From IMG/VR virus record IMGVR_UViG_3300014954_000001: a stretch of DNA of 61,502 nucleotides; one strand, written 5' to 3'. The translations under genes and the position numbers were made by a program. The notes beneath the pieces were generated by a model. That model was not told the DNA's origin and searched no databases. It saw only the letters and a list, made by a program, of their open reading frames with translations. This stretch comes from a virus. Positions 6,976 through 34,611 of this stretch are shown piece by piece. Every line of letters begins with the position of its first letter. The first letter of the stretch is position 1.

Positions 6976-7415
6976 TGAAGCTGATTAAGATTTCAACGGA
7001 CCTTGAACTGACTGTGCATGATTTTCCGACAGGAACACATTCAGAACAGAACGATTACCTTAGAGGATTGATTGGAAATGACTGTGAGCTGTATGAGCAT
7101 GTTATGCCAGAGCGATTATATACAGACTTGAAAATGAAAGACCGACCAACAAAGATACCGGGACAGTGTGTGAGCATGCTGATTGATGAGGAAGGGCGAT
7201 TAAAGCAAAACACCGCAAATCTTATTGGGAGTTATCTTTATAAAACAGATGTACATAATCAGCCGATTGTGGGAAATGTGCTCTTTGTCGGAGAAGAATG
7301 GAACAATGATGGTATCGACTTCTGCGGATTGGAGGAGGAGACATTTAAGCTTCTGGAACTTGAATTACACAATATGATTATGGCTATGAAAGCCACTATG
7401 GAGGTGTTGAAATGA
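6975..7415 (+). CDS. DUF3846-like protein
   Basis: LRGLIGNDCELYEHV...MLIDEEGRLK...PIVGNVLFVGEE pattern. Confidence 0.55.
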   Translation: MKLIKISTDLELTVHDFPTGTHSEQNDYLRGLIGNDCELYEHVMPERLYTDLKMKDRPTKIPGQCVSMLIDEEGRLKQNTANLIGSYLYKTDVHNQPIVGNVLFVGEEWNNDGIDFCGLEEETFKLLELELHNMIMAMKATMEVLK

Positions 7416-10400: not shown

Positions 10401-11257
10401 CGTGGGTAGAAAAGGAAAAAATGCTCCCAGTAGCAGAGGAAAGAAATGCAACAGCATTGAACAGGGTTCTGGAGTTGACAGCAGAAATTACCGGTATCGA
10501 TGATGAAATCTCAGAGAGACAGGCAGAGGCTGATAAAGAGATACTTGCTATGGCGGGAATGGAAGAGGCTCAGGCGATTGTGAACGGACTGGATACAGAA
10601 GTGAATGCCATTAACAGCATGGTAAAGGAAAAACAGATGCGAATTGGAGCTTTACAGCAGAAATCGGAACAGATTGCAAAGTTGAAGCAGGATATTGCAG
10701 CTTTACAGGACAAGCAGGTGGAATATGCCAAGGAGACAGCTGATTACGATACATTGAAAGTCGCATTTAGCCAGAGCGGTGTGCCACATCAGATTATCCG
10801 TTCTATTATTCCGCAGCTGACAGCTACAGCGAATACCATTCTTGGACAGATGACTGGCGGAAAAATGGGAGTGGAGTTCAGACTAGAGAGATTACAGAAA
10901 AATGGAAAAGAAAAGGTATCGCTTGATATTTACATTGAAGAATACGGAAAGTCGATACTTCCATACCTTTCAAAATCTGGAGGCGAGAAAGTTAAGTCTT
11001 CATTGTCTGTAATCCTTGCATTGGCAGAAATCAAATCGTCTTCGGCAGGAATACAGCTGGGAATGCTCTTTATTGATGAGCCGCCTTTCTTAGATGGGGA
11101 TGGAATACAGGCATATTGCGATGCACTGGAAACTATTCAGAGCAGATATAACAATATCAAAATAATGGCTATCACACACGATCCGACTATGAAAGCCAGA
11201 TTCCCACAGAATTTGGATGTAGTCAAAACGGAAAATGGTAGCAAGGTAATTTATTAA
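7412..11257 (+). CDS. Single-chain SbcD(Mre11)-SbcC(Rad50) nuclease/ATPase fusion
   Basis: N-terminal phosphoesterase motifs ADWHLG, SGDIFH, GTPNHD, MAHYTV, GHIHRP. Then Walker A NGQNGAGKSS, a ~600-aa coiled coil, signature SGGEKVKSSL, Walker B LFIDEP and ITHD. Confidence 0.85.
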   Translation: MKILHTADWHLGTFRSPVKDGVNLRTEDTKRCLDELIRVANEEKPDYSLVSGDIFHVGRLWSDRCCEEIITAIHYIRELAAVSKQVVVMRGTPNHDGSGQFNVLSEMFADVPNVHVVITPQVISFDDVDIAVLPGFDRGVFRANHPGLSSDEENVVFTNELSNIVTGLKAQCSPEKKSILMAHYTVPGCNTESGQTMMLTQFEPIIPQEALLAANYNLVALGHIHRPQKIMHRDWYYSGAINAMNFNDEGQQRGFWIHNWHELGTWQSIFHETPIREFATIELNDDDVTQINMQAMDFVATEKWRGQIDGKIVRVHYSCTAENSKALNKATLERELLEDGAFMVWEILPDKIDEFANRTQLENATDPEANLIKYLEEKQVPQERIQELVLKARPIIAEAEASMTATANSGTFEPVEIAVKNYRNYEEETFNFEDITFCTINGQNGAGKSSLFMDAIIDCLYEEPREGVIKDDTGKAPWLRNDESVRSGSIMFTFRIGEKKYRVTRTRARSGKGTLNISQFVENEWKDCSKERYNDTQQEILNILGMDSFTFKSCALIMQDQYGLFLQAKPEERVEVLGTLLGLGVYQLMERIASDKAKVNGAKNRDLKQEITIHNVTIAEFGKPDEELEACKTELAEQEARLQAKINERDQKKLILSNQQEAAERRKKALAAVTTLQAKKTIAEQNRATQQAIADSSLATLTQKPEIEEKIAERNDLLKRELELAGQSALYTTKKQEAENLAKQAESEQKNILELQAALQKKQDEKNAMILDSANDGEVRQKAETYTKKKAELEDMQEKAVAYQKAKTEYSAAVFHESETRSSFDREKQKADEQKQFLEKKVAILNESGCVDIEKAHCKFLQDAIEAKEQLEVHEALYVDIAARRDCELAKSRYAIENKQAEMDAIGYDAAALTVLQNECATLLPYVAQLEKINQRENNLALIKAALEHLKSNISEAENRLAEVKLKGTQAETERDIYAKAFEEHVHVLSAITALDPWVEKEKMLPVAEERNATALNRVLELTAEITGIDDEISERQAEADKEILAMAGMEEAQAIVNGLDTEVNAINSMVKEKQMRIGALQQKSEQIAKLKQDIAALQDKQVEYAKETADYDTLKVAFSQSGVPHQIIRSIIPQLTATANTILGQMTGGKMGVEFRLERLQKNGKEKVSLDIYIEEYGKSILPYLSKSGGEKVKSSLSVILALAEIKSSSAGIQLGMLFIDEPPFLDGDGIQAYCDALETIQSRYNNIKIMAITHDPTMKARFPQNLDVVKTENGSKVIY

Positions 11258-12092: not shown

Positions 12093-12747
12093 ACAGCAAT
12101 TTGCGACATTGGCAATCGGAATTAAATCCGCATATCCAGCTTCAAAAATACTCGAAGATAATGCCTCAATGGATTTTTGGTATATGACACTTAAAGATAT
12201 TCCGTATGAGATTGCTGAAAATGCTGTCATGGAGCATATTTGCACCAATATTTATCCGCCCAACATAGCTGAAATCAGAAAGCTATGTATGGAAAGATGT
12301 AAAACACCAATTCTGAGTTTTGACGAAGCATGGGGAGTTGTCCAAAAAGCAATGTCCGATTATGGGTGGTATCATCCGCAGGAGGCATTTGCAACCATGG
12401 ATGAGCTCACATTGGCTGTAGTTAAAAATCTTGGGTGGAGCAGGCTGTGCCAGAGCGAAAATCCAACTGCAGAAAGGGCAAACTTCCGTGAGGCTTATGA
12501 GAAAAAAGCCGCTGAAGCACAAAATACAAATGCACTTCCGGATTTCGTCGCTAAAAACAAAGTGCTGTTGCAAAAGCAGTATGTACCGGCGATTGAGAAG
12601 AAAGAGCCTGTAAGGATAGAACAGGAGAAAGAACCAGAACCTAAACCGCTCACAGAGGAACAGCGAGAAGAAAGGGCTCGCAAATTTGAAGAAATAAGGA
12701 GGAAGATTTTAGGTGGTGAAGCAGAGCGAAGCAATACAGGGAACTGA
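12085..12747 (+). CDS. G39P-like helicase loader/inhibitor family protein
   Basis: ATG at 12085 overlaps the rep stop. FATLAIGIKSAYPASKIL...FWYMTLKDIPYE...PPNIAEIRKLC. Confidence 0.55.
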   Translation: MNKQQFATLAIGIKSAYPASKILEDNASMDFWYMTLKDIPYEIAENAVMEHICTNIYPPNIAEIRKLCMERCKTPILSFDEAWGVVQKAMSDYGWYHPQEAFATMDELTLAVVKNLGWSRLCQSENPTAERANFREAYEKKAAEAQNTNALPDFVAKNKVLLQKQYVPAIEKKEPVRIEQEKEPEPKPLTEEQREERARKFEEIRRKILGGEAERSNTGN

Positions 12748-13546
12748 AAAAGAATTCTTAAATGAATTTCATAAACTCTGCTATTCACGAAGCTCTTGGC
12801 AGGTTTGGGCGGATTTGATGACAGCTATAGCGTGCTCAATAAGTAATGTGGCAGACAGAAGCCCGGAGCATTATGAGAGCAGAGAAAAAGAATATGCACA
12901 ATGCATAGAGAGACTTGGTTCTGTAGAGATTCCTGCAAAAATGCTTGCAATCATTGTTGAAGCCCTGGAAAGAAATCCGGAACAGGATTTCCTTGGAGAA
13001 ATGTATATGCAGCTAAATCTTGGAAATCACTGGAAAGGGCAGTTTTTTACACCCTACTGTGTGTGCAAGATGATGTCTGAGATAACCTGTGAGGATGTTG
13101 ACAGCCATATAGAAAAGCAAGGCTACTTATCCATTTGTGATCCGGCTTGTGGAGCAGGAGCAACATTGATAGCTGCCGCAAATACCATGAAAAAGTGTAA
13201 ACATAATTTTCAAAATCATGTGGTTTTTGTTGCACAGGACATAGACAGAATAACCGGGATGATGTGTTACATACAGCTTTCACTTTTGGGGTGTGCAGGA
13301 TATGTGTGTATAGCAAATACGATTACAAATCCTTTGACGGGGCATGTACTGTTCCCTAATGAAAAAGAGGGACAGGAACTCTGGTATATGCCAATGTTTC
13401 AAAATCAAATATGGACATGGAGAAGATTGTTCCAGTCAATGGGCGGTCTTGGTGGAACTGCAACCACCGAAAAAACAGTGGAAAAAGAGCACTTTTATAT
13501 GTTTTTCGATTTCGATAAAAAGGAGGAAGCCTATGGAAACAGGTAG
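12713..13546 (+). CDS. N6-DNA-methylase-like SAM-binding protein lacking the catalytic (D/N)PPY motif
   Basis: GTG start after aggagg. GQFFTPY and ICDPACGAGATL motifs are present. No NPPY/DPPY anywhere in the 277 aa. Confidence 0.6.
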   Translation: MVKQSEAIQGTEKEFLNEFHKLCYSRSSWQVWADLMTAIACSISNVADRSPEHYESREKEYAQCIERLGSVEIPAKMLAIIVEALERNPEQDFLGEMYMQLNLGNHWKGQFFTPYCVCKMMSEITCEDVDSHIEKQGYLSICDPACGAGATLIAAANTMKKCKHNFQNHVVFVAQDIDRITGMMCYIQLSLLGCAGYVCIANTITNPLTGHVLFPNEKEGQELWYMPMFQNQIWTWRRLFQSMGGLGGTATTEKTVEKEHFYMFFDFDKKEEAYGNR

Positions 13547-16780: not shown

Positions 16781-17027
16781 CTTGATAATACCGAAGTTTA
16801 TTGCAAGGAAACCCAAAATCAAGCACGGAACATACAACAAGTATGGCTTTGTTATTACGCTTCATCAGTATTGTATCTGTCCTAGATGTAACCATATCCT
16901 CAATGCCGGTCCAGATTATCAGCCGGATTATTGTAGTAAGTGCGGACAGCATGTTAATTGTTCAGATGTTCCATGGGAAGAGGAAGTTCAGCTTGGATAT
17001 GTCAGAAAGGAGGAACACTGTGAATAA
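16752..17027 (+). CDS. Small zinc-ribbon protein
   Basis: CPRCNHIL...CSKCGQHVNC. The internal ATG at 16752 is preferred over 16686. Confidence 0.45.
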   Translation: MIQMLKQVTSLIIPKFIARKPKIKHGTYNKYGFVITLHQYCICPRCNHILNAGPDYQPDYCSKCGQHVNCSDVPWEEEVQLGYVRKEEHCE

Positions 17028-18063
17028 ATCAAAAATTGAGTGGTGTGATCATACATGGAATCCGATTACAGGATGCCGACACAACTGTTCATATTGCTAT
17101 GCAAGAAGAATGACCGCTAGATTTGCTGGAGATGTAAGACTGAATTTGATGGCGAAGAAAGATTATTCAATAGAGCCTGCGGCAGATAATTCAGACAATG
17201 TATTTGTTTTGGAAGAACCAATGCTAAACGAAACAGGAAATACATTGGTTTATCCATTTGGATTTGAACCTACATATCACAAGTACCGCATGGATTATCC
17301 AGAAAAGCTCAAAATGGGAAATAACATTTTTGTCGGGGCAATGGCTGACATATTTGGGAAATGGGTTCCGGACGAATGGATCAGAGATGTAATGGAAACC
17401 TGTTTGGATAACCCAATTCACAATTACCTGTTTCTTACAAAGAATCCGGAGAGATATACGGAAGTTGGAGTGCCGGCGGGACTGGAAAATATGTGGTACG
17501 GAACAACCATTACCTGCGATGCGGATGCTGATAGATTTAATTATCTTCCTGCTGGATGCAATACGTTTGTCAGCATTGAACCACTAATGGAGGACATTGT
17601 TTCTAAGCATAATGTGATGTTTCGACAGGTTGATTGGATAATCATCGGAGCAGAGACGGGACGTAACAAAAATAAAATAGTGCCAGAACTGCAATGGATA
17701 AAAGACATCGTTGTAAAAGCTGATTATAATTCAGTGCCAGTTTTCATGAAAGACAGTCTGATTCCGATTGTCGGGGAAGAAAATATGCGCCGAGAATTTC
17801 CGAAGCAGCTGCAACATTCGGAGATTAGCCCGAAGCTGAAAGCAAAGTTGTTTGATGGCTGTGCATCATGCAAGGCTCATTTGAGAAAAAGCGAAATGAT
17901 AACCCTGCTGGCAAGGTCAAAAAGAGGCGAACAGCCCAAACAATTCGGGTTTATGTGCAGGGATTGCTTCAAGGAGTTTTGCAAAGGCCTTGGATTAGAT
18001 ATACCGGAGCTTATTGGATTGGCAGAGAGCGTAACGATAGGTCCAGGTGATGAAGATGAGTAA
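16999..18063 (+). CDS. Phage Gp37/Gp68 (DUF5131) family protein with CX3CX2C motif
   Basis: KIEWCDHTWNPITGCRHNCSYCYARRM. Start is ATG 16999 or GTG 17020 (after aggagg). Cys-rich C-terminal extension. Confidence 0.75.
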   Translation: MSERRNTVNKSKIEWCDHTWNPITGCRHNCSYCYARRMTARFAGDVRLNLMAKKDYSIEPAADNSDNVFVLEEPMLNETGNTLVYPFGFEPTYHKYRMDYPEKLKMGNNIFVGAMADIFGKWVPDEWIRDVMETCLDNPIHNYLFLTKNPERYTEVGVPAGLENMWYGTTITCDADADRFNYLPAGCNTFVSIEPLMEDIVSKHNVMFRQVDWIIIGAETGRNKNKIVPELQWIKDIVVKADYNSVPVFMKDSLIPIVGEENMRREFPKQLQHSEISPKLKAKLFDGCASCKAHLRKSEMITLLARSKRGEQPKQFGFMCRDCFKEFCKGLGLDIPELIGLAESVTIGPGDEDE

Positions 18064-24055: not shown

Positions 24056-24461
24056 TATTTCAGACTATGCAATACATCATCGAATAGGCAGGAGTGAGCC
24101 AACAGGAACTACATACACCACACGATTTGGAAATACTAGACAGAAAAATGTGTTTAAGGAATTCTACCAGACCAACATAGGAGAATTTACTCCGGAGAAG
24201 TGGTTGGAAGTTACTTTGCAGATAATACAGACACTTATGGAAAATGAACTTCTGGAGGAAATAAAGGAACATGTCGCAGGCCATTGTGTGTGGCTTAAAA
24301 ATGATAAGGAGATTGAGGAATACTCGGCATCCTGTTTAGCTTCTGGGGCATATATGTACTGGGAAGATTTTAAGGACAAGAGACTACCGGCACATAAGGT
24401 ATTTATCTTTGAGGGAGGTGATTTCAGATGGCAGTCTGTATGGAATGCGGAAGAAAATTGA
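24042..24461 (+). CDS. Hypothetical protein
   Basis: ggaggtggagg, then ATG at 24042. 139 aa. Confidence 0.5.
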   Translation: MKIVSISDYAIHHRIGRSEPTGTTYTTRFGNTRQKNVFKEFYQTNIGEFTPEKWLEVTLQIIQTLMENELLEEIKEHVAGHCVWLKNDKEIEEYSASCLASGAYMYWEDFKDKRLPAHKVFIFEGGDFRWQSVWNAEEN

Positions 24462-24640
24462 GAAGCCAACAAAGCAAGGAAGTGGGATACGGACCGGTAT
24501 GTTATAAGAGAGCGTTCGGTACCAGTATGCGGATCCGTGATGGAGATTCAAAAACAGGTACTGCTTCAGACGATTTCCCATATTATGAAATACCAGGGCA
24601 AATGTCGATTGAGGATTTTATAAAAGCAGATGAAAAGTAA
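24428..24640 (+). CDS. Small DUF6011-like protein
   Basis: CMECGRKLRSQQSKEVGYGPVCYKR. Confidence 0.5.
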   Translation: MAVCMECGRKLRSQQSKEVGYGPVCYKRAFGTSMRIRDGDSKTGTASDDFPYYEIPGQMSIEDFIKADEK

Positions 24641-24732
24641 AAGGAGAGTGCTTTCGCAACCCTCCCAACAGACAGTTAGATTATATCATAATTCGTTATG
24701 AATTTGAAATAAAAAAGAAGGAGGGCGACAGC

Positions 24733-25332
24733 ATGGACAGCCAGTCAACAGAAGAAAGAGCAGAAAAGGTTATAATAGCTCTTACACCAGAACAATTGAA
24801 GGATATTTGTGCAAATGCAGCTGAAATTGGAGCAAAGGAAGCATTAAAAACCTATGAGCAGGAAAGAAAAAAGGAGCAGGGAAAACGGGCAGACAGAAGA
24901 TTGAGGAATACAAAGCTGCTCCTGCGTAATTATCACATGCTCAAAGAACATGCGGAAAACTCAGTTTTCGGGCGAACACAGATGGAGGAATCGGCTTTGG
25001 ATATCTTGGAATCAATGATGAATCTTTATGACAATGAGGTGATCATTGAAAGCATCAAGAGAAGTGCAACCAGAACGGCTATTATCGTTTCACATATCGA
25101 GACAATGTTTGGCTTGTATGATGCCTATTGTGAAAAATCTCCGAACCAGGATATAGACCGCAGGAGATACGATGTGGTTTGGGATAAGTACATGGCAGAA
25201 CCGGTTCTTACTGTAAAAGAGATTGCGGCAAAGCACAATATGTCAAAGGAAAATGTGTATTCCGATTTGAGAGTTGCGGAGGAAAGATTGACCGCTCTTA
25301 TATTCGGGGTGGACGGATTGAAAGTACGATAA
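24733..25332 (+). CDS. ArpU/RinA-like late transcriptional regulator (sigma-70 region-4-like HTH)
   Basis: RRLRNTKLLLRNYHMLKEH...LTVKEIAAKHNMSKENVYSDLRVAEERL. Last gene before the late region. Confidence 0.55.
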   Translation: MDSQSTEERAEKVIIALTPEQLKDICANAAEIGAKEALKTYEQERKKEQGKRADRRLRNTKLLLRNYHMLKEHAENSVFGRTQMEESALDILESMMNLYDNEVIIESIKRSATRTAIIVSHIETMFGLYDAYCEKSPNQDIDRRRYDVVWDKYMAEPVLTVKEIAAKHNMSKENVYSDLRVAEERLTALIFGVDGLKVR

Positions 25333-25357
25333 AGCCACCGTCTACAAAATAATTACA

Positions 25358-25386
25358 TTGACATCACAGCTTATAAATGGCAAAAT
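25358..25386 (+). promoter_or_regulatory. Candidate promoter TTGACA-17-CAAAAT
   Basis: -35 at 25358-25363, 17-nt spacer, -10-like at 25381-25386. Confidence 0.35.
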
Positions 25387-25418
25387 CGTATTTGTAAAAT
25401 TCTAAATCGAACGTCGGG

Positions 25419-25451
25419 GAAGTCTGCAGAGTTGTTGCAGGCTTCTTTTTT
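25419..25451 (+). terminator. Rho-independent terminator
   Basis: Stem gaagtctgca / tgcaggcttc (10 bp, one G-U), 7-nt loop, tttttt. Confidence 0.7.
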
Positions 25452-25534
25452 GATGCAAACTTTCCGAGAAAGGAGAGACGATTGAACAGGAAATGCACCT
25501 GCTCCTCCAGAATAATATTGATTGGAGGAAAATA

Positions 25535-26920
25535 ATGAATTACACAATTATGGTGCTGGCTGCTTATGCGGTAATTATGATTGCGGCAACAGTACTTATG
25601 ACAAACAAAGAGAAAAGCGTCGAAAGGTTTTGTGTTGGAAATAGAAATACAGGATGGTTTATATCTGCATTAAGCATTGCAGCTACATGGATATGGGCTC
25701 CTGCACTATTTACATCAACAGAGAATGCTTATACCAAAGGCTTTGCAGGGCTGTTTTGGTTTCTGGTACCTAATGTGCTTTGTCTCATATTCTTTATTCC
25801 GTTTGCTAGGAGAATAAGAAAAGAAATGCCGGAAGGAATCACACTGTCTGGATATATGCACCAGAAATATCAATCTGAATCGGTAAAAAATATTTACCTG
25901 TTCCAGCTTGGAGCATTATCGGCATTATCTACAGGAGTCCAGTTATTGGCAGGAAGCAAAATATTAAGTATGCTGACAGGCATTCCATTCTGGATCATGA
26001 CAGTAATCATGGCTGTGATTGCTTATTCGTATTCACAGTTCTCTGGAATAAAGGCTTCTATACTGACAGATTCTATACAGATGGTCTTTATGTTGATTGC
26101 AAGCGTTTGCTTTGCAGTTTTCGGCATTAAGAATGGTGGCGGTCTTCAAAATATGTTCGCAGGAATTGGCGGATATACAGGAGAGTGTAGCTCTCTTTTC
26201 TCTGCAAAAGGTATAGAGATATTTCTTGGTTTTGGACTCCCCACAACAGTTGGTCTTATCTCAGGACCATTTGGCGACCAATGTTTTTGGCAGAGAGCAT
26301 TTTGTGTAAAGAAAAATCGAATAGGAAGGGCTTTCTTTGTTGGAGCAATTCTATTTGGCATGGTGCCATTTTCAATGGGAATCCTTGGGTTTGTCGGAGC
26401 TGGAATGGGATATACGGCAATTGATACAGGTGTGATTAACTTTGAACTTATTTCAGAATTATTTCCGAGCTGGGCGGTAATCCCATTTTTATTTATGATT
26501 GTATCTGGATTATTATCTACGATTGACAGTAATCTGTGTGCAATATCATCCCTCACAACAGACATATTCAAAAAGAATACACTCGGAAAGACCAAGATTG
26601 CCATGGTTGCACTGTTGGTAATAGGAATTATAGTTGCCAATATCCCAGGGCTTACAGTTACGCATTTGTTTTTAATGTATGGCACACTCAGAGCAGCAAC
26701 GCTTCTCCCAACAATATTTACATTAAAGGGGGTAAAGCTCAAACCAGAAGGTGTTGTTACTGGCATTGCGACCGCGCTGATTATAGGACTTCCTGTATTT
26801 GCTTATGGAAATATCACAGGAACTGCAGCTTATAAGACAGCAGGCAGCCTTTTGACAGTTCTGTTATCCGGAACAGTTGCTTTGATTGTAAGCAGAAAGA
26901 GGGGTGCAGAGAATGGATAG
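25535..26920 (+). CDS. Sodium:solute symporter (SSF) family transporter
   Basis: 461 aa, highly hydrophobic and multi-TM. N-terminal FCVGNRNTGWFISALSIAATWIWAPALF. ggagg, then ATG at 25535. Confidence 0.8.
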   Translation: MNYTIMVLAAYAVIMIAATVLMTNKEKSVERFCVGNRNTGWFISALSIAATWIWAPALFTSTENAYTKGFAGLFWFLVPNVLCLIFFIPFARRIRKEMPEGITLSGYMHQKYQSESVKNIYLFQLGALSALSTGVQLLAGSKILSMLTGIPFWIMTVIMAVIAYSYSQFSGIKASILTDSIQMVFMLIASVCFAVFGIKNGGGLQNMFAGIGGYTGECSSLFSAKGIEIFLGFGLPTTVGLISGPFGDQCFWQRAFCVKKNRIGRAFFVGAILFGMVPFSMGILGFVGAGMGYTAIDTGVINFELISELFPSWAVIPFLFMIVSGLLSTIDSNLCAISSLTTDIFKKNTLGKTKIAMVALLVIGIIVANIPGLTVTHLFLMYGTLRAATLLPTIFTLKGVKLKPEGVVTGIATALIIGLPVFAYGNITGTAAYKTAGSLLTVLLSGTVALIVSRKRGAENG

Positions 26921-27698
26921 CGTACTCGGAAGAAAGCAGCGAATCAAAAACTCTGACTGGATAGAAACTTTTGACAAAATCGAACAGCTGATAACTAAAA
27001 AAGAGTTGGATCAGCTTGTAGATAAGACCATACAGGATATAAAAGCCAAGACGAAAGGAAAGAAAGCTTCCTACGCATGGAGCGGAGGAAAAGATTCCCT
27101 TGTGCTTGGAGAAATTTGCCGTCGGGCAGGAATAAGCTCCTGCGTCCTCGTAATCAGCAATTTGGAGTATAAAGCATTTACGCAATGGGTTGAGGATAAT
27201 AAGCCTCCGGAATTGTCCATTATCAATACAGGACAGGATATTAAGTGGCTTGTTACTCATCCACACATGCTTTTCCCGCAGGATAGCAAATATGCAGCTC
27301 AATGGTTCCATATTGTTCAACATAGAGGACAAGCAAAATACTACAAAGAAAACAACCTCGATATGCTCCTTCTTGGAAGACGAAGGGCTGATGGGAATTA
27401 TGTTGGAAAAGGTGACAATATCTACACCAACAGCCAAGGGGTTACACGATATAGCCCTTTGTCAGATTGGACGCATGAGCAGGTTTTGGCATATATCCAT
27501 TATTATAATTTGGCTATGCCGCCTATATATGATTGGAAAAATGGCTATCTATGCGGAACGCATCCTTGGCCAGCAAGGCAATGGACAGGAAGTACAGAGA
27601 ATGCCTGGAGCGAAATCTATGAGATTGACAGCTCCATAGTAATTGAGGCGGCAGAATATTTTGAGAGTGCAAAAGCATTCTTAAAGACAATAAAATAA
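26913..27698 (+). CDS. PAPS-reductase-like PP-loop ATP pyrophosphatase (copy 1)
   Basis: YAWSGGKDSLVL P-loop, LLLGRRRADG, YSPLSDWTHEQVLAYI. The ATG overlaps the transporter stop (atggatag). Confidence 0.75.
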   Translation: MDSVLGRKQRIKNSDWIETFDKIEQLITKKELDQLVDKTIQDIKAKTKGKKASYAWSGGKDSLVLGEICRRAGISSCVLVISNLEYKAFTQWVEDNKPPELSIINTGQDIKWLVTHPHMLFPQDSKYAAQWFHIVQHRGQAKYYKENNLDMLLLGRRRADGNYVGKGDNIYTNSQGVTRYSPLSDWTHEQVLAYIHYYNLAMPPIYDWKNGYLCGTHPWPARQWTGSTENAWSEIYEIDSSIVIEAAEYFESAKAFLKTIK

Positions 27699-27711
27699 GT
27701 TGCTGACACTT

Positions 27712-27752
27712 GACAGCATTTGCAGACAAAAGACTGCAAGTGCTGTCTTTTT
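27712..27752 (+). terminator. Strong rho-independent terminator
   Basis: 14-bp stem gacagcatttgcag / ctgcaagtgctgtc, 8-nt loop, ttttt. Confidence 0.8.
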
Positions 27753-27779
27753 GCTATTTGCAGATAGCGTATATATCAT
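27751..27779 (+). promoter_or_regulatory. Candidate promoter TTGCTA-17-TATCAT
   Basis: Immediately after the terminator and upstream of the ParB-like gene. Confidence 0.4.
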
Positions 27780-27820
27780 ACGGATTTGTTCCTCCAATCA
27801 AAATACAGGAGGAAACAAAG

Positions 27821-28450
27821 ATGGAAATTATCACAATGAAGCTGGTGGACCTCGTGAAGCCAGAAAAGAATGTCAGAATTCATACGGAGCAACAGCTGAA
27901 AGAGTTCCAAAGAAGTGTCAAAATGTTCGGACAGATCCGTCCGATTGTTGTTGACGAAAACAATGTAATCTTGGCAGGAAATGGTTTGTATGAAACATTG
28001 ATTGCCATGGGAAAAGAAACAGCTGATGTTTATAAGTATGACAACCTTACTGAAAATCAGAAAAAGAAGCTGATGATTGCAGACAATAAGATTTTCAGCC
28101 TAGGTATTGAAAATCTCGATACACTCAATAGCTTTTTAGAGGACCTGCAGGGCGACCTTGATATCCCGGGCTTTGATGAAGACATATTAAAGCAGATGGT
28201 GTCAGAGGCAGAGGATGTTACAGAAAAGCTCTCCGAGTATGGAACTTTGGATGATGAAGAAATCCAGAGCATTAAAGAAAGCGGAGAGAGAAAAGAACAG
28301 CAGATTCAAAAAGCGGAGGCGGAGCAGGCAACACCAGCACCGCAGCCGATTGCTCAGCCACAACAGGAAATGCCAGAGGACAGTGAAGATACCACCGAAG
28401 TAAAGAAATTTGTTATCTGTCCGAAATGCGGGGAGAAAATATGGCTATAA
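27821..28450 (+). CDS. ParB/Srx-like N-terminal domain protein with degenerate arginine motif and C-terminal zinc ribbon
   Basis: KPEKNVRIHTEQQLKEFQRSVKMFGQIRPIVVDENNVILAGNGLYETL. C-terminal CPKCGEK. aggagg, then ATG at 27821. Confidence 0.65.
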   Translation: MEIITMKLVDLVKPEKNVRIHTEQQLKEFQRSVKMFGQIRPIVVDENNVILAGNGLYETLIAMGKETADVYKYDNLTENQKKKLMIADNKIFSLGIENLDTLNSFLEDLQGDLDIPGFDEDILKQMVSEAEDVTEKLSEYGTLDDEEIQSIKESGERKEQQIQKAEAEQATPAPQPIAQPQQEMPEDSEDTTEVKKFVICPKCGEKIWL

Positions 28451-29589
28451 AGCGGTGTGAATCCAGTATAGATGTTGTAAAGGCCGCCAAAATCCGTATA
28501 AGAAATGTATTCCAAAACGGATTGCCGGTGTATATGTCTTTCAGCGGTGGTAAGGACAGCCTTTGTATGGCACAGCTTGTTATGGAGCTTGTGCAGGCAG
28601 GGGAAATCAATCCGGCACAGCTTACTGTACAATTTATAGACGAGGAAGCCATTTTCCCTTGCATGGAAGATAAGGTGAAAGAATGGCGAAAGAAATTTAT
28701 GCTAATTGGAGCAAAGTTTGAGTGGTATTGCTTAGAAGTAAAACACTACAACTGCTTTAATGAGTTGTCCAACGATGAAACTTTTATTTGTTGGGACAGA
28801 TATAAAAAAGACGTTTGGGTAAGACAGCCGCCATCATTCGCAATCAGAAATCATCCGCTGTTAAGACCTCGTATCGATGCATATCAGGATTTCCTTCCAA
28901 GAATATGCAGCGGAGGAATAACAATTACCGGAATCAGGACAGCGGAATCCGTGCAGAGATTGCAAAATATTGCAACTATGCTTAAAGCTGGAAAGACAAT
29001 GACAAATAAGCACCAGGTCTTTCCAATATACGATTGGACCAATAATGATGTATGGCTTTACCTCCTTCGAGAAAAGGTTGATATACCGGAAATATACCTG
29101 TTCTTATGGCAGTCTGGGACACGAAAAGGACAATTAAGAGTATCACAGTTCTTTTCGATTGACACGGCAAAGAGCCTTGTCAAAATGAATGAGTATTATC
29201 CGAACCTTATGGAACGGATAGTAAGACGGGAACCTAACGCATATCTCGCAGCCTTATATTGGGATAGTGAGATGTTTGGTAGGAGCACAGCTGCAAGAAA
29301 ACAAAATGAGAAGGGAATGGCTGAGAAAGATTATAAAGCGGCTCTTTTGGAACTGTTTTCAGATATGAACGGAAATTTCCAAACAAAGCACAAGAGATAT
29401 GTTGCTGAACGATACAGGAACTTTTTTATGAGTGTTTCTGCTATTGCGGACAATAAGGATTGCAAGGCCATATATGAAGGACTTATTTCTGGTGATCCAA
29501 AGCTGCGTTCCTATCGTGCTTTATATCAGAGAATCTATGGTAAATACATTACAGAAGCCAAAAAGAAGGAGGGCATGACAAATGGATAA
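28441..29589 (+). CDS. IbrA-like PAPS-reductase-family PP-loop protein with long C-terminal extension (copy 2)
   Basis: MSFSGGKDSLCMAQL, ITGIRTAES, PIYDWTNNDVWLYL, plus a ~150-aa C-terminal region. Overlaps both neighbours. Confidence 0.7.
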   Translation: MAIKRCESSIDVVKAAKIRIRNVFQNGLPVYMSFSGGKDSLCMAQLVMELVQAGEINPAQLTVQFIDEEAIFPCMEDKVKEWRKKFMLIGAKFEWYCLEVKHYNCFNELSNDETFICWDRYKKDVWVRQPPSFAIRNHPLLRPRIDAYQDFLPRICSGGITITGIRTAESVQRLQNIATMLKAGKTMTNKHQVFPIYDWTNNDVWLYLLREKVDIPEIYLFLWQSGTRKGQLRVSQFFSIDTAKSLVKMNEYYPNLMERIVRREPNAYLAALYWDSEMFGRSTAARKQNEKGMAEKDYKAALLELFSDMNGNFQTKHKRYVAERYRNFFMSVSAIADNKDCKAIYEGLISGDPKLRSYRALYQRIYGKYITEAKKKEGMTNG

Positions 29590-30103
29590 GAAATTGAGTA
29601 GCCCACTTTCTACTCTCCAATGGGTAGACAGGGATATGGTAAAACCAAACGATTACAACCCAAATAAAGTGTCAAAACAGAATTTGGAATTGCTGAAGCA
29701 ATCCATATTAACCAATGGATGGACATTACCAATTGTTGTGAGACCGGATTTCACGATTATTGATGGTTTCCACCGATGGACTGTTGCAGGAGAAGAACCT
29801 TTGAAGTCAATGCTTGAAGGCAAGGTTCCTGTTGTAATTGTAGAACATAAGGATAAAGCCGGTAATATTTACGGTACTGTAACCCACAACAGGGCAAGAG
29901 GTACACATTTGCTTGAACCTATGAAAGCGATTGTTAAAGAGCTTATGGGAGAGGGGAAATCTGTTGAAGAAATCGGTAAGCAGCTTGGCATGAGGCCAGA
30001 GGAAATATTCCGATTATCGGACTTCTCCAAAGAAGACTTTTTGAATATGATGATTAAACCAAATCAGGGTTATTCAAAAGCAGAGTTTATAACGAAGATT
30101 TAA
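29582..30103 (+). CDS. IbrB-like ParB/Srx-domain protein
   Basis: VKPNDYNPNKV...LPIVVRPDFTIIDGFHRW...THNRARG. Confidence 0.7.
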   Translation: MDKKLSSPLSTLQWVDRDMVKPNDYNPNKVSKQNLELLKQSILTNGWTLPIVVRPDFTIIDGFHRWTVAGEEPLKSMLEGKVPVVIVEHKDKAGNIYGTVTHNRARGTHLLEPMKAIVKELMGEGKSVEEIGKQLGMRPEEIFRLSDFSKEDFLNMMIKPNQGYSKAEFITKI

Positions 30104-30204
30104 TGTTAAAACAATAAATATTCGTGAGAGTGACACACGGGAGGGCATACACCCTCCCTCTTGTGCGTCCACGATTGCAAAACGAACAGGAGAGAGGTGG
30201 TGAT

Positions 30205-31014
30205 ATGCCGAGAGCACCGAGCGAGAAAGTAACACAAGCTGAAAAGCTATTCAATGATGGTATGGCAATGGTTGAGATTGCTAAGAAACTGGAAGTTTCA
30301 GACGGAACAGTCCGCAGCTGGAAGAACCGGTACGGATGGGGAAAAGCCTCAAAAAAAAACAAGTGCAACGTTGCGAAAAAAAATGAGAAGAAAAATGCAA
30401 CGTTGCAAAAGAAAAAGAGGGGAGGTCAACCCAAAAATCAGAATGCAAAAGGCGGTTCTGGCAATCCAAACCCAAACCCTCCACCAGACAGAACAAAGCA
30501 TGGCGGTTATGTTCCTGTATTTATGGATGCGTTGGATTCAGATGAGCAGGAACTTCTTGGGTCTATTCCAGAAGATACAGAGCTTCAACTGATGGAACAG
30601 ATACAGCTTTTTTCGATTAGAGAGCGAAGAATACTTAAAGCAATCAATAAATACCGCGAACAAAAAGGAGAGGTTGCGGTAATGGATGTGAACCGAAGCG
30701 AGTCAAAACGCTCGTTTAAAGACCAAGAGGAAGAGGCAGAGTACGATAGGCGCCAGAAGGAGAAGGTTGATAATAAAGAAATTCTTCCGGGTAAGTCCTA
30801 TAATATAGCAACACACACAGCCAATAAGGATATGATCATAGCGAGGCTGGAACAGGAACTTTCTACTGTGCAGAGCAAAAAGACAAAGGCTATTGAAGCG
30901 TTGTCCAAGTATCGCATAGAAAAGGCAAGGCTTGAAAGTGAAAGTGCTGGCAACGATGCGGTTGATGATTGGATTGCAGCTGTATTGGGAGAGGAAGTGA
31001 GCGAAGATGAATAA
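30205..31014 (+). CDS. terS: Terminase small subunit
   Basis: N-terminal HTH AEKLFNDGMAMVEIAKKLEVSDGTVRSWKNRYGW, then a coiled coil. Immediately upstream of the large subunit. Confidence 0.7.
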   Translation: MPRAPSEKVTQAEKLFNDGMAMVEIAKKLEVSDGTVRSWKNRYGWGKASKKNKCNVAKKNEKKNATLQKKKRGGQPKNQNAKGGSGNPNPNPPPDRTKHGGYVPVFMDALDSDEQELLGSIPEDTELQLMEQIQLFSIRERRILKAINKYREQKGEVAVMDVNRSESKRSFKDQEEEAEYDRRQKEKVDNKEILPGKSYNIATHTANKDMIIARLEQELSTVQSKKTKAIEALSKYRIEKARLESESAGNDAVDDWIAAVLGEEVSEDE

Positions 31015-32437
31015 GAACTCACGGACATTACGAAGAAAATTCTTCCAGAAGAAAATCCCAATATACAGGAAAAATCCGGTGCTATTTGCACAAGAGGTAT
31101 TACTGTTTGAGCCTGATGATTGGCAAAAACAAGCTTTGATGGATTTGGCGGAAAGCCCAAAGGTTGCAATCAAGTCTGGACAGGGTGTTGGAAAAACAGG
31201 TATGGAAGCCGTTGCTCTGCTGTGGTTTTTATGCTGCTATCCCTATCCGAGAATTGTTGCAACAGCTCCTACCAAACAGCAGTTGCACGATGTATTGTGG
31301 TCCGAAGTCAGCAAGTGGATGAGCAAGTCTCCTTTGCTCTCAGACATCCTCAAATGGACGAAGACCTATATTTATATGGTTGGCAACGAAAAGCGTTGGT
31401 TTGCCGTAGCTAGGACTGCTACAAAGCCAGAGAATATGCAAGGTTTCCACGAGGACAATATGCTGTTTATTGTTGATGAAGCTTCTGGTGTTGCAGATCC
31501 TATCATGGAAGCAATACTTGGCACTCTTTCTGGAGCAAACAATAAGCTGCTGATGTGCGGAAACCCTACAAGAACATCTGGAACATTTTACGATGCTTTC
31601 AATGTGGATAGGTCGATATACAGGTGCCATACGGTATCGTCTGCAGATAGTAAGAGAACCAACAAGCAGAATATCGAATCTCTCATACGGAAATATGGGA
31701 AAGACAGTAATGTTGTTCTTGTCCGTGTGTTCGGAGAATTTCCAAAGCAGGAAGATGATGTGTTTATAGCCCTTTCCATAGTAGAACATTGCTGTATGCT
31801 GGATTTGCCAGACGATGTTCCTATTAAGCGAATATCATTCGGTGTGGATGTTGCGAGATATGGCTCGGATGAAACAGTTATTGCTAAGAACGTAGGAGGA
31901 AGAATAACGCTTCCTGTATCGTTCAGAGGGCAAAGCCTTATGACGACAGTTGGAAAGATAGTACAGCTCTATAGACAAGCTATAACAGAGTTTCCACGAT
32001 ACAGAGGGAAGATATACATTAACATTGATGATTGCGGCCTTGGTGGCGGGGTTACAGACCGTCTTGAGGAAGTAAAGCAGGAAGAAAAGCTCACACGAAT
32101 GGTAATTGTTCCGGTTAATGCCGCAGGTAAAGTTCCGGAAGAAACACTTGGTGATGGGAAACAGAAAGCCTGTGATATTTACGACAATATGACAACATAT
32201 CTTTGGGGCACAGTGAAAGATGCCTTGATGATGGAGGAAGTAAGTCTGGAAAATGACAATGAGCTTGTTGCTCAGTTTACTTGCAGGAAATATAGGCTGA
32301 CGAGCAGGGGGAAGATGCTGCTTGAAAGCAAAGAGGAAATGAAGAAACGAGGAATTGATTCCCCGGATAGAGCAGATGCGGTTGCACTGTCTTGCTACCA
32401 GAAAAAGACATTCAATATCGGAAGTCTCGTAGATTAG
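31007..32437 (+). CDS. terL: Terminase large subunit
   Basis: Walker A KSGQGVGKTG, Walker B MLFIVDEASGV, C-terminal nuclease-like region with D residues. Confidence 0.85.
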   Translation: MNKNSRTLRRKFFQKKIPIYRKNPVLFAQEVLLFEPDDWQKQALMDLAESPKVAIKSGQGVGKTGMEAVALLWFLCCYPYPRIVATAPTKQQLHDVLWSEVSKWMSKSPLLSDILKWTKTYIYMVGNEKRWFAVARTATKPENMQGFHEDNMLFIVDEASGVADPIMEAILGTLSGANNKLLMCGNPTRTSGTFYDAFNVDRSIYRCHTVSSADSKRTNKQNIESLIRKYGKDSNVVLVRVFGEFPKQEDDVFIALSIVEHCCMLDLPDDVPIKRISFGVDVARYGSDETVIAKNVGGRITLPVSFRGQSLMTTVGKIVQLYRQAITEFPRYRGKIYINIDDCGLGGGVTDRLEEVKQEEKLTRMVIVPVNAAGKVPEETLGDGKQKACDIYDNMTTYLWGTVKDALMMEEVSLENDNELVAQFTCRKYRLTSRGKMLLESKEEMKKRGIDSPDRADAVALSCYQKKTFNIGSLVD

Positions 32438-32448
32438 GAGGTGAGGAA

Positions 32449-34611
32449 ATGCAGGACAATGAGAAAGAAAGCAGAGCAGATGGATATAAGAATCTGATGA
32501 ATAAGTATGGTACTCAAGATGATGTGTCAGAGCAGTATCGTTTTGAGAGTGATGATCCTGTAACAGATGTGGAACTCACACTGAACTACGAGGAAAACGG
32601 ATTGTTCGCTAAGATAATAGATATCCCATCTGATGATGCTGTTAGTAGTGGATTTGAATATGGTGTAAATGATGTTGACCTGGAAACATTTATAAATGAT
32701 TCACTTGACGAGTTGGACTTTGAGGGTGCAGCTTCTACAGCTATCAAATGGTCGAGACTTTATGGCGGATCGCTTATGGTTATGATTATTGATGATGGCA
32801 AACAGATTGATGAACCTGTTGATTGGGATAACATCAGAGGCATTGATGAATTGCTGGTGTTTGAAAGACCACTGATTACACCAGACTACAATAGCATATA
32901 CAATCATGATCCGAAGACTGGTAAATGGTCCAAATTTGGAAAGCCAGAGTTTTACGACATATCGCCTATGTATGGCAGACAGTTCAGAGTGCACGAGAGC
33001 AGATGCCTTCTTTTCAAGAATGGAACACTGCCACAGTCAAGCTCAAGGACGGAGTATCGGTTCTTTGGTATGCCAGAGTACACGAGAATACATAAAGCCT
33101 TGCAGGAAACTGTTACATCGCATGGAAATGGAGTTAAACTGCTTGATAGGGCGGTACAGGCAATTTACAAGATGAATGACCTTGCCAATCTTCTGGAAAC
33201 AGACGAGGGCGAGGATATTGTTCTTAGAAGATTGCGTATAATTGATATGGCAAAAGGCATCATCAATTCTATAGCTATTGATGCGAACGGAGAAGATTAC
33301 GATTATAAGACTGTGACATTTTCCGGAGTAAAGGATATTATCGATGCGACATGCAATATGCTTTCGGCAGTAACAAACATCCCACAGACGAAGCTCTTTG
33401 GAAGGTCACCAGCCGGCGAAAACTCCACCGGAGAGGGAGATATGGAGAACTATTACTCCTATGTGAATAAGATTCAGAAGTTGAACCTCAAAAGAAATCT
33501 TGGAGTGCTGATTGATATTATCTTGATAGCCGGAAAGTATAAAGGCGAGTTCGAGGAAATACCGGATTATACACTGAAATTTAAACCTCTTTGGAATCTA
33601 AGTGAAGCGGAACAGGCTGGGGTTGATCAGACGAAGGCGGCAACTGAACTTACAAAGGCACAGACCGCACAGGTTTATGTCGATATGCAGGCTCTTGATG
33701 CTTCGGAAGTCAGAAAGCGATTGGCAGAGAACGGAGAATTTACTGTTAATGATATTCTGGATGATGAAGACGATTGGGAGGCTATGGTAGATGATGCTCC
33801 GGTTAATGCCAATGAATCAGCCGAAACATCGAATACAGCATTGTCTGCAGAAACAAAAGCACCAAAGGAGCAGGAAGAAACTGAAACTGATTCAGCAACG
33901 GATACAACTATTCCTACCGGATGCGGTGTCATTGTTGTGAAAGATGGGAAAGTGCTTGTTGGCACAAGGAAAGACAATGGACTTGTGTGTGGACCTGGAG
34001 GACATATTGAAATAGGGGAAACACCGGAAGATGCGGCTATAAGAGAAACAAGGGAAGAATTTGGCATCAATATAGCAAATATAATTCCAGTAACTTTGAT
34101 TTCTGGTATGTCCGAACAATATTGTCCTTCGCAGGTTTTTCTATGCACAGAGTATTATGGAAATCCAATATGCTTTAATACAGAGATGGAAGATGCCCGT
34201 TTTGAAGATGTAGGAAGTGTTCTTGACATGGACTTATTCCTTCCGTTTAGACTTTCACTTGAGGACTTTCTAAGGCAACTGGATGAAATTCGGTTGACAG
34301 CTGAGGTAAGTCAAAGTAATATGGAAGCAGATGGAGGTCCTGGCTCCGGAAGATACCCAAAGGGTAGCGGAAAAAAGAATGAAAAGAGCGGCTCTAAGAA
34401 AAAGAAATCCCAGTCCTTGCCAATGACTGCAAAGGAAAAGGCGAAGGTGACGCATGATATAAATAATGTGTATCACGCAAAGTATAAGGGTAAGTCGAGC
34501 TGCTATATAAGGACGCATTCAAATGAGCCAGATAGCCCAGCTTATGTATATCGATTCAGAAACCATGGCTTTGATGATTACGAAATATACATGAAGGAAT
34601 CCACAGATTAA
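32449..34611 (+). CDS. Portal protein (DUF1073-like) fused to a C-terminal NUDIX hydrolase domain and a basic tail
   Basis: 720 aa. Portal-like for the first ~470 aa. Nudix box GHIEIGETPEDAAIRETREEFGI at 34000-34068. Continuous ORF. Confidence 0.75.
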   Translation: MQDNEKESRADGYKNLMNKYGTQDDVSEQYRFESDDPVTDVELTLNYEENGLFAKIIDIPSDDAVSSGFEYGVNDVDLETFINDSLDELDFEGAASTAIKWSRLYGGSLMVMIIDDGKQIDEPVDWDNIRGIDELLVFERPLITPDYNSIYNHDPKTGKWSKFGKPEFYDISPMYGRQFRVHESRCLLFKNGTLPQSSSRTEYRFFGMPEYTRIHKALQETVTSHGNGVKLLDRAVQAIYKMNDLANLLETDEGEDIVLRRLRIIDMAKGIINSIAIDANGEDYDYKTVTFSGVKDIIDATCNMLSAVTNIPQTKLFGRSPAGENSTGEGDMENYYSYVNKIQKLNLKRNLGVLIDIILIAGKYKGEFEEIPDYTLKFKPLWNLSEAEQAGVDQTKAATELTKAQTAQVYVDMQALDASEVRKRLAENGEFTVNDILDDEDDWEAMVDDAPVNANESAETSNTALSAETKAPKEQEETETDSATDTTIPTGCGVIVVKDGKVLVGTRKDNGLVCGPGGHIEIGETPEDAAIRETREEFGINIANIIPVTLISGMSEQYCPSQVFLCTEYYGNPICFNTEMEDARFEDVGSVLDMDLFLPFRLSLEDFLRQLDEIRLTAEVSQSNMEADGGPGSGRYPKGSGKKNEKSGSKKKKSQSLPMTAKEKAKVTHDINNVYHAKYKGKSSCYIRTHSNEPDSPAYVYRFRNHGFDDYEIYMKESTD

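Follow-up and report, generated by a model that had tools for sequence, protein, structure and literature searches.

Positions 25535–30103 of the window, by which we mean the whole 61,502-nucleotide stretch of DNA in IMG/VR record IMGVR_UViG_3300014954_000001, hold five consecutive genes that form the module described here: a sodium/solute symporter, two PP-loop proteins (PP1 and PP2) and two ParB-like proteins (ParB1 and ParB2). They lie on the plus strand, immediately upstream of the terminase genes. The window is assigned to a temperate phage of Lachnospiraceae on the basis of an integrase gene at 254–1333 and of a near-identical transporter in a Lachnospiraceae metagenome-assembled genome (MAG). 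In that MAG, obtained from the Hadza gut, the transporter is 98% identical to the window copy, and the gene order is unchanged. The comparisons reported below show the module to be one conserved, selected and mobile unit at the head of the packaging genes.

The first gene (25535–26920) encodes a symporter of 461 amino acids of the SSF clade (LeuT fold), which falls into a phage-specific clade (Pfam PF00474, 3e-23; phrog_20720, 1e-243). Its ATG lies 8 nucleotides downstream of the ribosome-binding site ggagg. The product of the second gene, PP1 (26913–27698), is a predicted PAPS-reductase-like PP-loop ATP pyrophosphatase of 261 amino acids (PAPS_reduct, 2e-10; phrog_424) and an optional member of the module. 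ParB1 (27821–28450) consists of a ParB/Srx-like N-domain, an acidic, PQ-containing linker and a single C-terminal CPxCG; it has no Pfam match and is recognised by phrog_620, 'ParB-like', at 1e-51. PP2 (28441–29589), an IbrA-like PP-loop protein of 382 amino acids, combines a PAPS_reduct domain (6.5e-15; phrog_2302, 2e-98) with a C-terminal extension. ParB2 (29582–30103), with 173 amino acids, is an IbrB-like ParB/Srx protein marked by NDYNPN, DGFHR and HNRARG (ParB_N, 4e-7; phrog_2159, 3e-74).

A sequence-only reading of this DNA had already delimited the five genes, and checks of open reading frames and profiles agree with it on coordinates, overlaps and motifs. The symporter gene and PP1 share 8 nucleotides (atggatag), ParB1 and PP2 share 10, and PP2 and ParB2 share 8. 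The motifs SGGKDS (PP1), FSGGKDS (PP2), AGNGLYE and CPKCG (ParB1) and DGFHRW (ParB2) are all present. Purifying selection is strong in all five genes: the ratio of nonsynonymous to synonymous substitution rates (dN/dS) is 0.02–0.09, at unsaturated dS values of about 0.06–0.5 and similarly at 80% identity, and lies at 0.05–0.07 for the transporter gene. A megablast search of the region against 50,697 phage records gave no match, so relatives exist at the protein level only.

Conservation of the module in gut phages

Scans of IMG/VR with the transporter and PP1 returned 153 loci, and the transporter was found in 80 species genomes of GTDB, in every case within the module, with hosts including Lachnospiraceae, Oscillospiraceae, Anaerovorax and one Clostridioides difficile. 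Linkage was counted with hidden Markov models (HMMs), using only loci with at least 2.5 kb of downstream sequence. Downstream of the transporter, an IbrA-like gene and ParB genes are found in all 67 viral loci and in 71 of the 73 genome loci, and PP1 is present in 60 and 68 of them, respectively. Among the IMG/VR loci, the order regulator, symporter, PP1, ParB1, PP2, ParB2, small terminase (terS) and large terminase (terL) is kept down to about 58% amino-acid identity. In at least 14 genomes, the module sits on another backbone, on which a RinA-like activator and a terL of the type found in Faecalibacterium phage FP_Taranis replace the regulator and terL of the window.

The transporter is not a chance insertion, a point for which the sequence-only reading had proposed co-occurrence as the test: it is linked in 138 of 140 gut loci to a trio of ParB, IbrA-like and IbrB-like genes, which is its constant partner, while PP1 is dispensable. 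One locus, L100 (6198–8008), looked like PP1 without a transporter and was rejected as such, as a tyrosine-recombinase (integrase) gene interrupts its transporter gene, of which the last 137 codons remain, in frame with an ATG, as a C-terminal fragment; the rest of the module is intact.

Prophages with the module occur in several cultured strains, namely Acetatifactor muris DSM 23669, Parablautia intestinalis, Eubacterium plexicaudatum ASF492, Agathobaculum desmolans ATCC 43058, Dysosmobacter segnis, Flavonifractor and a Clostridioides difficile isolate.

Relatives in FP_Taranis and in marine phages

The cultured Faecalibacterium phage FP_Taranis (NC_047914) has a comparable arrangement: a RinA-like gene is followed by gp35, annotated as 'transporter membrane protein', and then by ParB-like, IbrA and IbrB genes, terS and terL. 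Its IbrA (gp37) is 44% identical to PP2, and the stop codon of gp35 overlaps the start of the ParB1 gene, which couples the transporter translationally to the trio. The published description of FP_Taranis does not discuss these genes. With 333 amino acids, gp35 belongs to no Pfam, NCBIfam or PHROG family. Its AlphaFold model (predicted local distance difference test, pLDDT, 86) has a LeuT fold, and the best match in the PDB is CHT1, an SSF member, with a template modelling (TM) score of 0.64–0.69. When deep alignments are compared by hhalign, gp35 matches the transporter clade with a probability of 95% (E 3e-8, 213 columns); these supersede a profile comparison based on shallow alignments (E 0.014, probability 3%). 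Judged by profile and fold, gp35 is a shortened member of the phage clade to which the window transporter belongs. Of 73 loci of the gp35 type, 71 have an IbrA-like gene downstream, all have ParB genes, and in 14 a homologue with 39% identity to PP1 separates the transporter from ParB1.

A further 80 loci came from a scan of metagenomes for which remote representatives of the transporter clade served as seeds. In a marine variant, the transporter stands inside the trio: ParB_N, transporter, IbrA (PAPS_reduct and DUF3440) and IbrB genes overlap or lie a few bases apart and are followed by a large terminase gene of the lambda-gpA type (L322, 44–3808; also L324, L327, L328, L331, L334, L344 and L346). 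A further backbone, with a lambda-family portal, carries the module in L399. On T4-like marine contigs, the order is a gp16-type terS (PF11053), the transporter, either a single PP-loop protein of about 370 amino acids with the motif WSGGIDS or two such paralogues, and a Terminase_6N terL (L339, 5995–8464; L354, 5914–9420; L360, 5908–11032; L392, 156–2875). In L360, a B12-binding radical-SAM gene comes after the WSGGIDS gene. The WSGGIDS family has no relative in Pfam, NCBIfam or the PDB and no match in cultured phages. Because the transporter clade thus stands beside a different PP-loop family in T4-like phages, its link with PP-loop proteins is recurrent; among distant loci with enough flanking sequence, a PP-loop gene adjoins the transporter in 37 of 51. 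The recurrent association, seen on at least five kinds of backbone, is that of a transporter and a PP-loop enzyme next to terminase genes. The coupling of the transporter to PP-loop and ParB genes, which the sequence-only reading had seen as making the five genes one functional unit, thus extends over at least four backbones and two biomes. The narrower idea that symporter and PP1 form a self-contained cassette had to be given up, since PP1 is optional, the terminator behind it is lineage-specific, and in FP_Taranis the transporter gene runs directly into ParB1.

In Streptococcus thermophilus phages, an IbrA/IbrB pair follows the lysis genes, far from terS. At one such locus, in Streptococcus phage CHPC1148 (L320, 2767–5817), the gene that overlaps the start of ibrA is neither ParB-like nor a transporter gene; it encodes an SNF2/DEAD-like helicase (gp26).

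The transporter

The symporter passes the Pfam gathering score for PF00474 with 82.7 bits against a cut-off of 22.8, over profile positions 1–352 of 406. In an alignment with a PutP-like protein, its segments FSGIKASILTDSIQ and LLSTIDSN pair with GGFMAVCVTDFIQ and IMSTADSQ; they contain the ..G..A..TD..Q pattern of transmembrane segment 5 and the STxDS of transmembrane segment 8, which we take, by way of PutP and vSGLT, to form the Na+ (Na2) site. These features support the prediction of a complete, intact SSF importer. The cut-offs of the NCBIfam SSF subfamilies are not reached (PanF, 68 against 328 bits; PutP, 50 against 515; ActP, 19.5 against 750; superfamily 'sss', 118 against 184), and a substrate is therefore not assignable.

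The best matches in a sequence search of the PDB are DUR3 urea/H+ symporters (7e-13), followed by CHT1 (1.4e-5). This resemblance hints at small amines and was not used as evidence on the substrate. The clade is large, with 252 representatives at 50% clustering scoring below 1e-30. Its distant members in cellular-looking contexts (L350, L361, L367/L368, L374 and L382; L348 and L379/L383) gave no guide to the substrate either, since their neighbourhoods are incoherent. Some show a divergent TrmB-family regulator, with a malic enzyme, a saccharopine-dehydrogenase-like gene and a P-type ATPase in L367/L368, and in a second kind of context without IbrA the transporter stands with B12-radical-SAM, ATP-grasp and ABC ATPase genes. 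A second SSF match in the phage collection, in MT835682, was discarded as an ordinary PutP-like host gene beside leuA.

The PP-loop enzymes

PP2 is 26–27% identical to proteins annotated as IbrA over 82–86% of its length, and the match to phrog_2302 runs over positions 1–364 of 381. A multiple alignment with annotated IbrA from E. coli phage PhiR5_2 and from S. thermophilus phages extends from the N-terminus to the C-terminal ..LI.GD/ND..R.. motif. DUF3440 was not reported in the window PP2; it is found in the marine IbrA (5e-9), and an HMM built from alignment A5 is common to both. Together with the ParB2 alignments given below, these comparisons identify PP2 and ParB2, at the level of sequence, as homologues of IbrA/IbrB (YbdN/YbdM), in agreement with the sequence-only reading.

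The AlphaFold2 model of PP1 (pLDDT 86) resembles the generic fold of PAPS reductase, CysD and TtuA in Foldseek (TM-score about 0.5) and has no specific match, so it gives no clue to the substrate. A PDB sequence search returned weak PAPS reductase matches for PP1, and nothing below E 0.06 for PP2. In the PP1 family, WS[GA]GKDS, R157, DGN, R179, W186-H-E and PP.Y.W..G are invariant, and C69 is the sole invariant cysteine; the PP2 family alignment has no invariant cysteine at all. The ATP-type PP-loop is intact in both proteins, which suggests, at the level of the family, ATP pyrophosphatase (adenylation) chemistry.

Neither protein can be placed in a better-known branch of the superfamily. The CysH cut-offs of 154–254 bits are missed by PP1 (22 bits) and PP2 (16–18 bits), and PP1 has no catalytic ECGLH tail and no cysteine after ARQW. 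The cysteine of PP1 to which the sequence-only reading had drawn attention, C214 in YLCGTHPW, falls opposite the CysH segment GYLSVGDTHT in the alignment and not opposite the catalytic tail, and it is a tyrosine in PP1 of the Taranis type. The alternative raised there, that PP1 is a CysH-like redox enzyme, is thus contradicted by the variable cysteine, the missing tail and the low score. Matches to CysD (25–43 bits against cut-offs of 195–413) cover only a shared C-terminal motif, and the module contains no CysN-like gene. PP2 reaches 29.9 bits with the DndC model TIGR03183 against a cut-off of 290.4, and the PADLOC DndC matches span just 50 residues. The cysteine set of the [4Fe-4S] cluster of DndC and SspD is conserved neither in PP1 nor in PP2, and no DndA, DndD, DndE, SspA, SspB or SspC gene was found in or beside the module. 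As for BrxP of type-4 BREX, a protein of 779 amino acids in which a PAPS reductase domain is joined to extra domains, there is no full-length match, only stretches of 45–60 residues (E 1e-4 to 4e-8). CysH, CysD and DndC were accordingly rejected as identities of PP1 and PP2, given scores of 16–43 bits against cut-offs of 154–413. The lack of an invariant cysteine in PP2 also argues against Fe-S-dependent sulfur transfer of the DndC, TtuA or LarE type.

The ParB-like proteins

ParB2 is 72% identical to gp38 of FP_Taranis and 35% identical to annotated IbrB, with which D61-G62-F63-H64-R65 and N103-R104-A105-R106-G107 are invariant; NDYNPN is also common to both. It aligns with the partition model TIGR00180 up to about residue 136, through a segment that resembles a helix-turn-helix. 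ParB1 lacks the arginine box (in partition ParB the CTP-binding GERRxR), which is replaced by AGNGLYE in the window and by GHGKKK in a homologue from a Riemerella phage. Its invariant positions are G53, G55, KKKL, DN and C200-P-x-C203. Both proteins miss the TIGR00180 cut-off of 58.45 bits (28 bits for ParB2 and 15.9 for ParB1), and no ParA is encoded in the module; the database label 'partition protein' is a domain name only.

Phages also have DNA methyltransferases with a fused ParB-like domain, and it is this domain that the N-domains of ParB1 (phrog_498, 4e-28; PADLOC MTase_II, 1e-14) and ParB2 (phrog_498, 4e-16) match. These matches are the best argument from sequence that the ParB-like proteins may direct an enzyme to DNA. 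At the C-terminus of ParB1 (28417–28450), the single CPxCG is invariant from phages of Clostridia to the Riemerella phage. A lone CxxC cannot bind zinc by itself, which suggests an intermolecular zinc site in ParB1, with dimerisation like that of the Rad50 hook.

Flanking genes and non-coding elements

The gene upstream of the module (24733–25332, plus strand) encodes a protein of 199 amino acids and had been taken for a late regulator. The gene itself stands; the role is a presumption from position, as the protein matches no Pfam family and only phrog_1558 ('unknown function', 1e-53). The gene precedes the module in most relatives of the window type, and a RinA-like gene takes its place on the Taranis-type backbone. 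The downstream boundary is terS (30202–31014, plus strand; Pfam Terminase_5 and Phage_terminase), the start codon of which is uncertain, as its open reading frame opens at 30124. It is followed by terL (31007–32437, plus strand), which is identified by its position, by weak AAA_19 and AAA_30 matches and by its place after terS in relatives too.

Two terminator-like hairpins with U-runs lie on the plus strand. The first (25420–25451) separates the presumed regulator from the symporter gene; its stem (25420–25445) has a folding free energy of -19.7 kcal/mol (z -4.0), and none of 200 shuffled sequences folds equally well. The second (27712–27752) follows PP1 and has a 14-bp stem (27712–27747; -23.7 kcal/mol, z -5.3). 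Its conservation, by way of compensatory changes, is limited to relatives whose PP1 is at least about 74% identical, and it is present in 47 of 98 distinct spacers; in distant relatives, the PP1 and ParB1 genes abut with 0–8 nucleotides between them. Both hairpins had been noticed in the sequence-only reading (at 25419–25451 and 27712–27752) as insulators of the transporter and PP1. The structures are upheld; the hairpin after PP1 is confined to this lineage.

A sigma-70-like sequence (TTGACA-17-tgCAAAAT, 25358–25386, plus strand) agrees with the consensus at 10 of 12 positions. Such matches are no commoner in the region than expected by chance, so it remains a candidate promoter. Just 5' of ParB1 lies the short inverted repeat GCTATTTGCAGATAGC (27753–27768, plus strand). 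Its core, ATTTGCAGA, occurs twice in the spacer between PP1 and ParB1, the second time in the terminator stem at 27718–27726, and hairpins like xCATTTGCAGATGx are found in the equivalent spacer of distant relatives in which the terminator is lost (for example L102, L291 and L280). The repeat may be a protein-binding site or an element of a late promoter. An Rfam search over 24400–31200 at permissive thresholds assigned neither a riboswitch nor any further RNA family to the leaders.

Elsewhere in the window, the portal protein (32392–34611, plus strand) is a fusion of Phage_portal_3 (residues 66–417) to a C-terminal NUDIX hydrolase domain (residues 512–565) with the Nudix box GGHIEIGETPEDAAIRETREEFG; behind this domain comes a tail rich in lysine. 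Virion proteins do not usually carry a nucleotide-pyrophosphatase domain, which might here have to do with anti-defence or with nucleotide chemistry in the module. In the early region (7412–11257, 12713–13546, 16801–18063), a calcineurin-like phosphoesterase and an SMC/RecN-type ATPase are fused in a single SbcCD-like chain of 1281 amino acids; the region also encodes a protein with an N6 DNA methylase domain, PcfK/PcfJ-like proteins and a DUF5131 protein.

Comparison with known systems

Among the closest known systems is the IbrA/IbrB pair of E. coli, with its paralogues YbdN/YbdM. Gene order and overlap are the same as for PP2 and ParB2, PP2 corresponding to IbrA over most of its length and ParB2 to IbrB. 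The module differs by a third ParB-like protein, a dedicated transporter of the SSF clade and often a second PP-loop enzyme, and by its place directly upstream of the terminase. For YbdN/YbdM of strain K-12, only the regulation has been characterised, namely repression by YbdO (PMC9068703).

DndC with DndB (Dnd) and SspD (Ssp), which belong to DNA phosphorothioation, and BrxP resemble the module in pairing a PAPS-reductase-family PP-loop ATP pyrophosphatase with a ParB-like protein of the DGxHR type; the profile matches to DndC and BrxP are weak. The target of Dnd and Ssp is DNA, and these systems have no transporter, whereas the module has one; moreover, the module reaches some 30 bits against a cut-off of 290 and lacks both the Fe-S cysteine set and the DndA/D/E or SspA/B/C partners. 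The phage fusions of phrog_498 share the ParB-like domain and sit in a similar place near terS. The module has no methyltransferase domain, and its ParB-like proteins are chains of their own, the translation of which is coupled to that of a PP-loop enzyme.

Phage 7-deazaguanine modification of DNA (DpdA) offers a further parallel: its precursor can be imported, the PP-loop enzyme QueC takes part in making that precursor, and bacterial Dpd systems have a ParB-like NTPase helper, DpdB, an ATPase that helps to exchange DNA bases (PMC12839542). The preQ0 importer YhhQ is found in some phages and is not tightly linked to any phage group (PMC6884629), whereas the linkage of the module's transporter is near-absolute. 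The module has no transglycosylase, its transporter has the SSF/LeuT fold and not that of COG1738, and its PP-loop enzymes are PAPS-reductase-like rather than QueC-like. The sequence-only reading had known of no membrane transporter coupled to such an enzyme in a phage; given YhhQ (PMC6884629), that was overstated, although the YhhQ case involves unrelated families.

Viral 'CysH' auxiliary metabolic genes have the same Pfam domain and database label as the PP-loop genes described here, but the latter lack the features of CysH, and their context is one of DNA-binding proteins and terminase. A literature search found no paper that ties a transporter to IbrA/IbrB or to phage PAPS-reductase-like genes. 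The gene families and the FP_Taranis annotations were known; new is the dedicated importer together with a PP-loop and ParB-like pair. The system would be categorically new only if new DNA chemistry were demonstrated.

A possible function and its alternatives

The function that we tentatively prefer, while placing it somewhat below an even chance, is that an imported substrate is used, at the expense of ATP, to modify DNA or nucleotides ahead of packaging. The importer would bring in a small molecule that the host supplies insufficiently. The PP-loop enzymes, to judge by their family, would then consume ATP to yield an intermediate in which either the imported molecule or a nucleic-acid target is adenylated. 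The ParB/Srx-like proteins may bind DNA and a nucleotide and thus direct the reaction to replicated phage DNA before it is packaged. The outcome would be a covalent modification of the phage DNA, or of the nucleotide pool that feeds it, which could protect or mark the genome. The slot just upstream of terS is a usual place for phage DNA-modification genes. A more specific form of this proposal is possible but rather doubtful. It holds that phages of gut Clostridia and of the sea share an unrecognised DNA modification, in which the imported molecule is attached via an adenylated base carbonyl or backbone phosphate by IbrA-family enzymes (together with PP1 or, in T4-like phages, WSGGIDS proteins), guided by the ParB/Srx-like proteins, shortly before the DNA is packaged.

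Several points weigh against a modification of DNA, a step that we infer. The module encodes no glycosylase, transglycosylase, methylase or other nucleic-acid-specific catalytic domain. Sandt and co-workers are said to have defined IbrA/IbrB genetically, in 2002, as activators of the prophage eib genes, which points to regulation. Many cultured phages, of E. coli, Streptococcus, Mycobacterium and Flavobacterium, have IbrA/IbrB without any transporter, and about 14 of the 51 distant transporter loci, some of them cellular-looking, have no PP-loop neighbour. The ParB/Srx fold is also compatible with activity on small molecules or on proteins, sulfiredoxin being an example. In the lineage of the window, finally, the symporter and PP1 genes are flanked by a promoter-like site and terminators, much like a moron expressed from the prophage.

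Less likely is a small-molecule pathway that never touches DNA, in which PP-loop adenylation and Srx-like phosphotransferases or NTPases would act on the imported compound late in infection, the product being a cofactor, an analogue of a nucleotide or a metabolite for anti-defence. The substrates of functionally known enzymes in the PAPS-reductase clade are small oxyanions, among them sulfate and FMN, and it is with this clade that the fold of PP1 agrees. The transporter clade recurs with three PP-loop families, some of its loci without IbrA include B12-radical-SAM, ATP-grasp and ABC genes of the kind usual in small-molecule pathways, and ParB1 has no arginine motif. The ParB-like proteins themselves speak for DNA, ParB2 through its alignment with TIGR00180 across the helix-turn-helix-like segment and ParB1 through a domain that also occurs in DNA methyltransferase fusions. 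Pure metabolism would hardly account, moreover, for a place that stays beside the terminase on unrelated backbones.

The genetics of IbrA/IbrB favour a role in regulation or packaging, which we consider less likely still. The IbrA/IbrB-like proteins and ParB1 would here be DNA-bound activators or co-activators, or clamps that mark the pac site, and the transporter would supply or sense a tuning ligand. KorB and VirB, CTPase clamps of the ParB family, are regulators of transcription, and IbrAB are annotated as 'co-activator of prophage gene expression'; the place of the module, between the presumed late activator and terS, also fits, as does the conserved small inverted repeat 5' of ParB1. Such a role leaves two ATP pyrophosphatases with intact loops and a dedicated importer unexplained. 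Most phages with the same terminase types lack the module, which is therefore not a core packaging factor, and the distance between the IbrA/IbrB pair and terS in S. thermophilus phages tells against it too.

It is very improbable that the symporter and PP1 are an independent lysogenic-conversion (moron) cassette, devoted to nutrient uptake and activation for the host and merely placed beside an unrelated IbrAB module. The promoter-like site upstream, the strong hairpins on both sides in this lineage and the compensatory changes that maintain the second of them in close relatives fit such a cassette. The idea is nevertheless largely contradicted already by the trio that accompanies the transporter in nearly all gut loci while PP1 is dispensable, by genes that abut or overlap in distant relatives and in FP_Taranis, and by the marine transporter between ParB and IbrA.

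Auxiliary sulfur metabolism, in which the 'PAPS reductases' would be viral CysH or CysD that boost assimilatory sulfate reduction while the symporter imports a sulfur source, is the least credible explanation: it draws on the Pfam PAPS_reduct matches, the PHROG label 'moron, auxiliary metabolic gene' and the treatment of gut-phage cysH as a sulfur auxiliary metabolic gene in the literature (Kieft et al.; PMC12323421), but is contradicted at the sequence level, where it fails every defining test applied, with scores far below the cut-offs, an ATP-type SGGKDS loop, no C-terminal catalytic cysteine motif, an unconserved cysteine in PP1 and no invariant one in PP2, no cysN, cysC, cysI or cysJ partners, and a tight linkage to ParB-like DNA-binding proteins instead.

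Implications

Pairs of the IbrA/IbrB type and phage 'PAPS reductases' are very common, and virome studies routinely count them as sulfur-metabolism genes. A dedicated, phage-specific importer that keeps so firmly to these genes, in several hundred of the sampled loci from phages of the gut and the sea, speaks against the sulfur reading and points to chemistry on an external substrate. FP_Taranis on Faecalibacterium and the prophages of the cultured strains are tractable systems in which this can be pursued. Should the module turn out to modify DNA, this would have consequences for the resistance of gut phages to restriction and CRISPR, and for sequencing bias in virome studies. If an imported molecule is indeed attached to phage DNA, this would be the first biochemical function for IbrA/IbrB (YbdN/YbdM).

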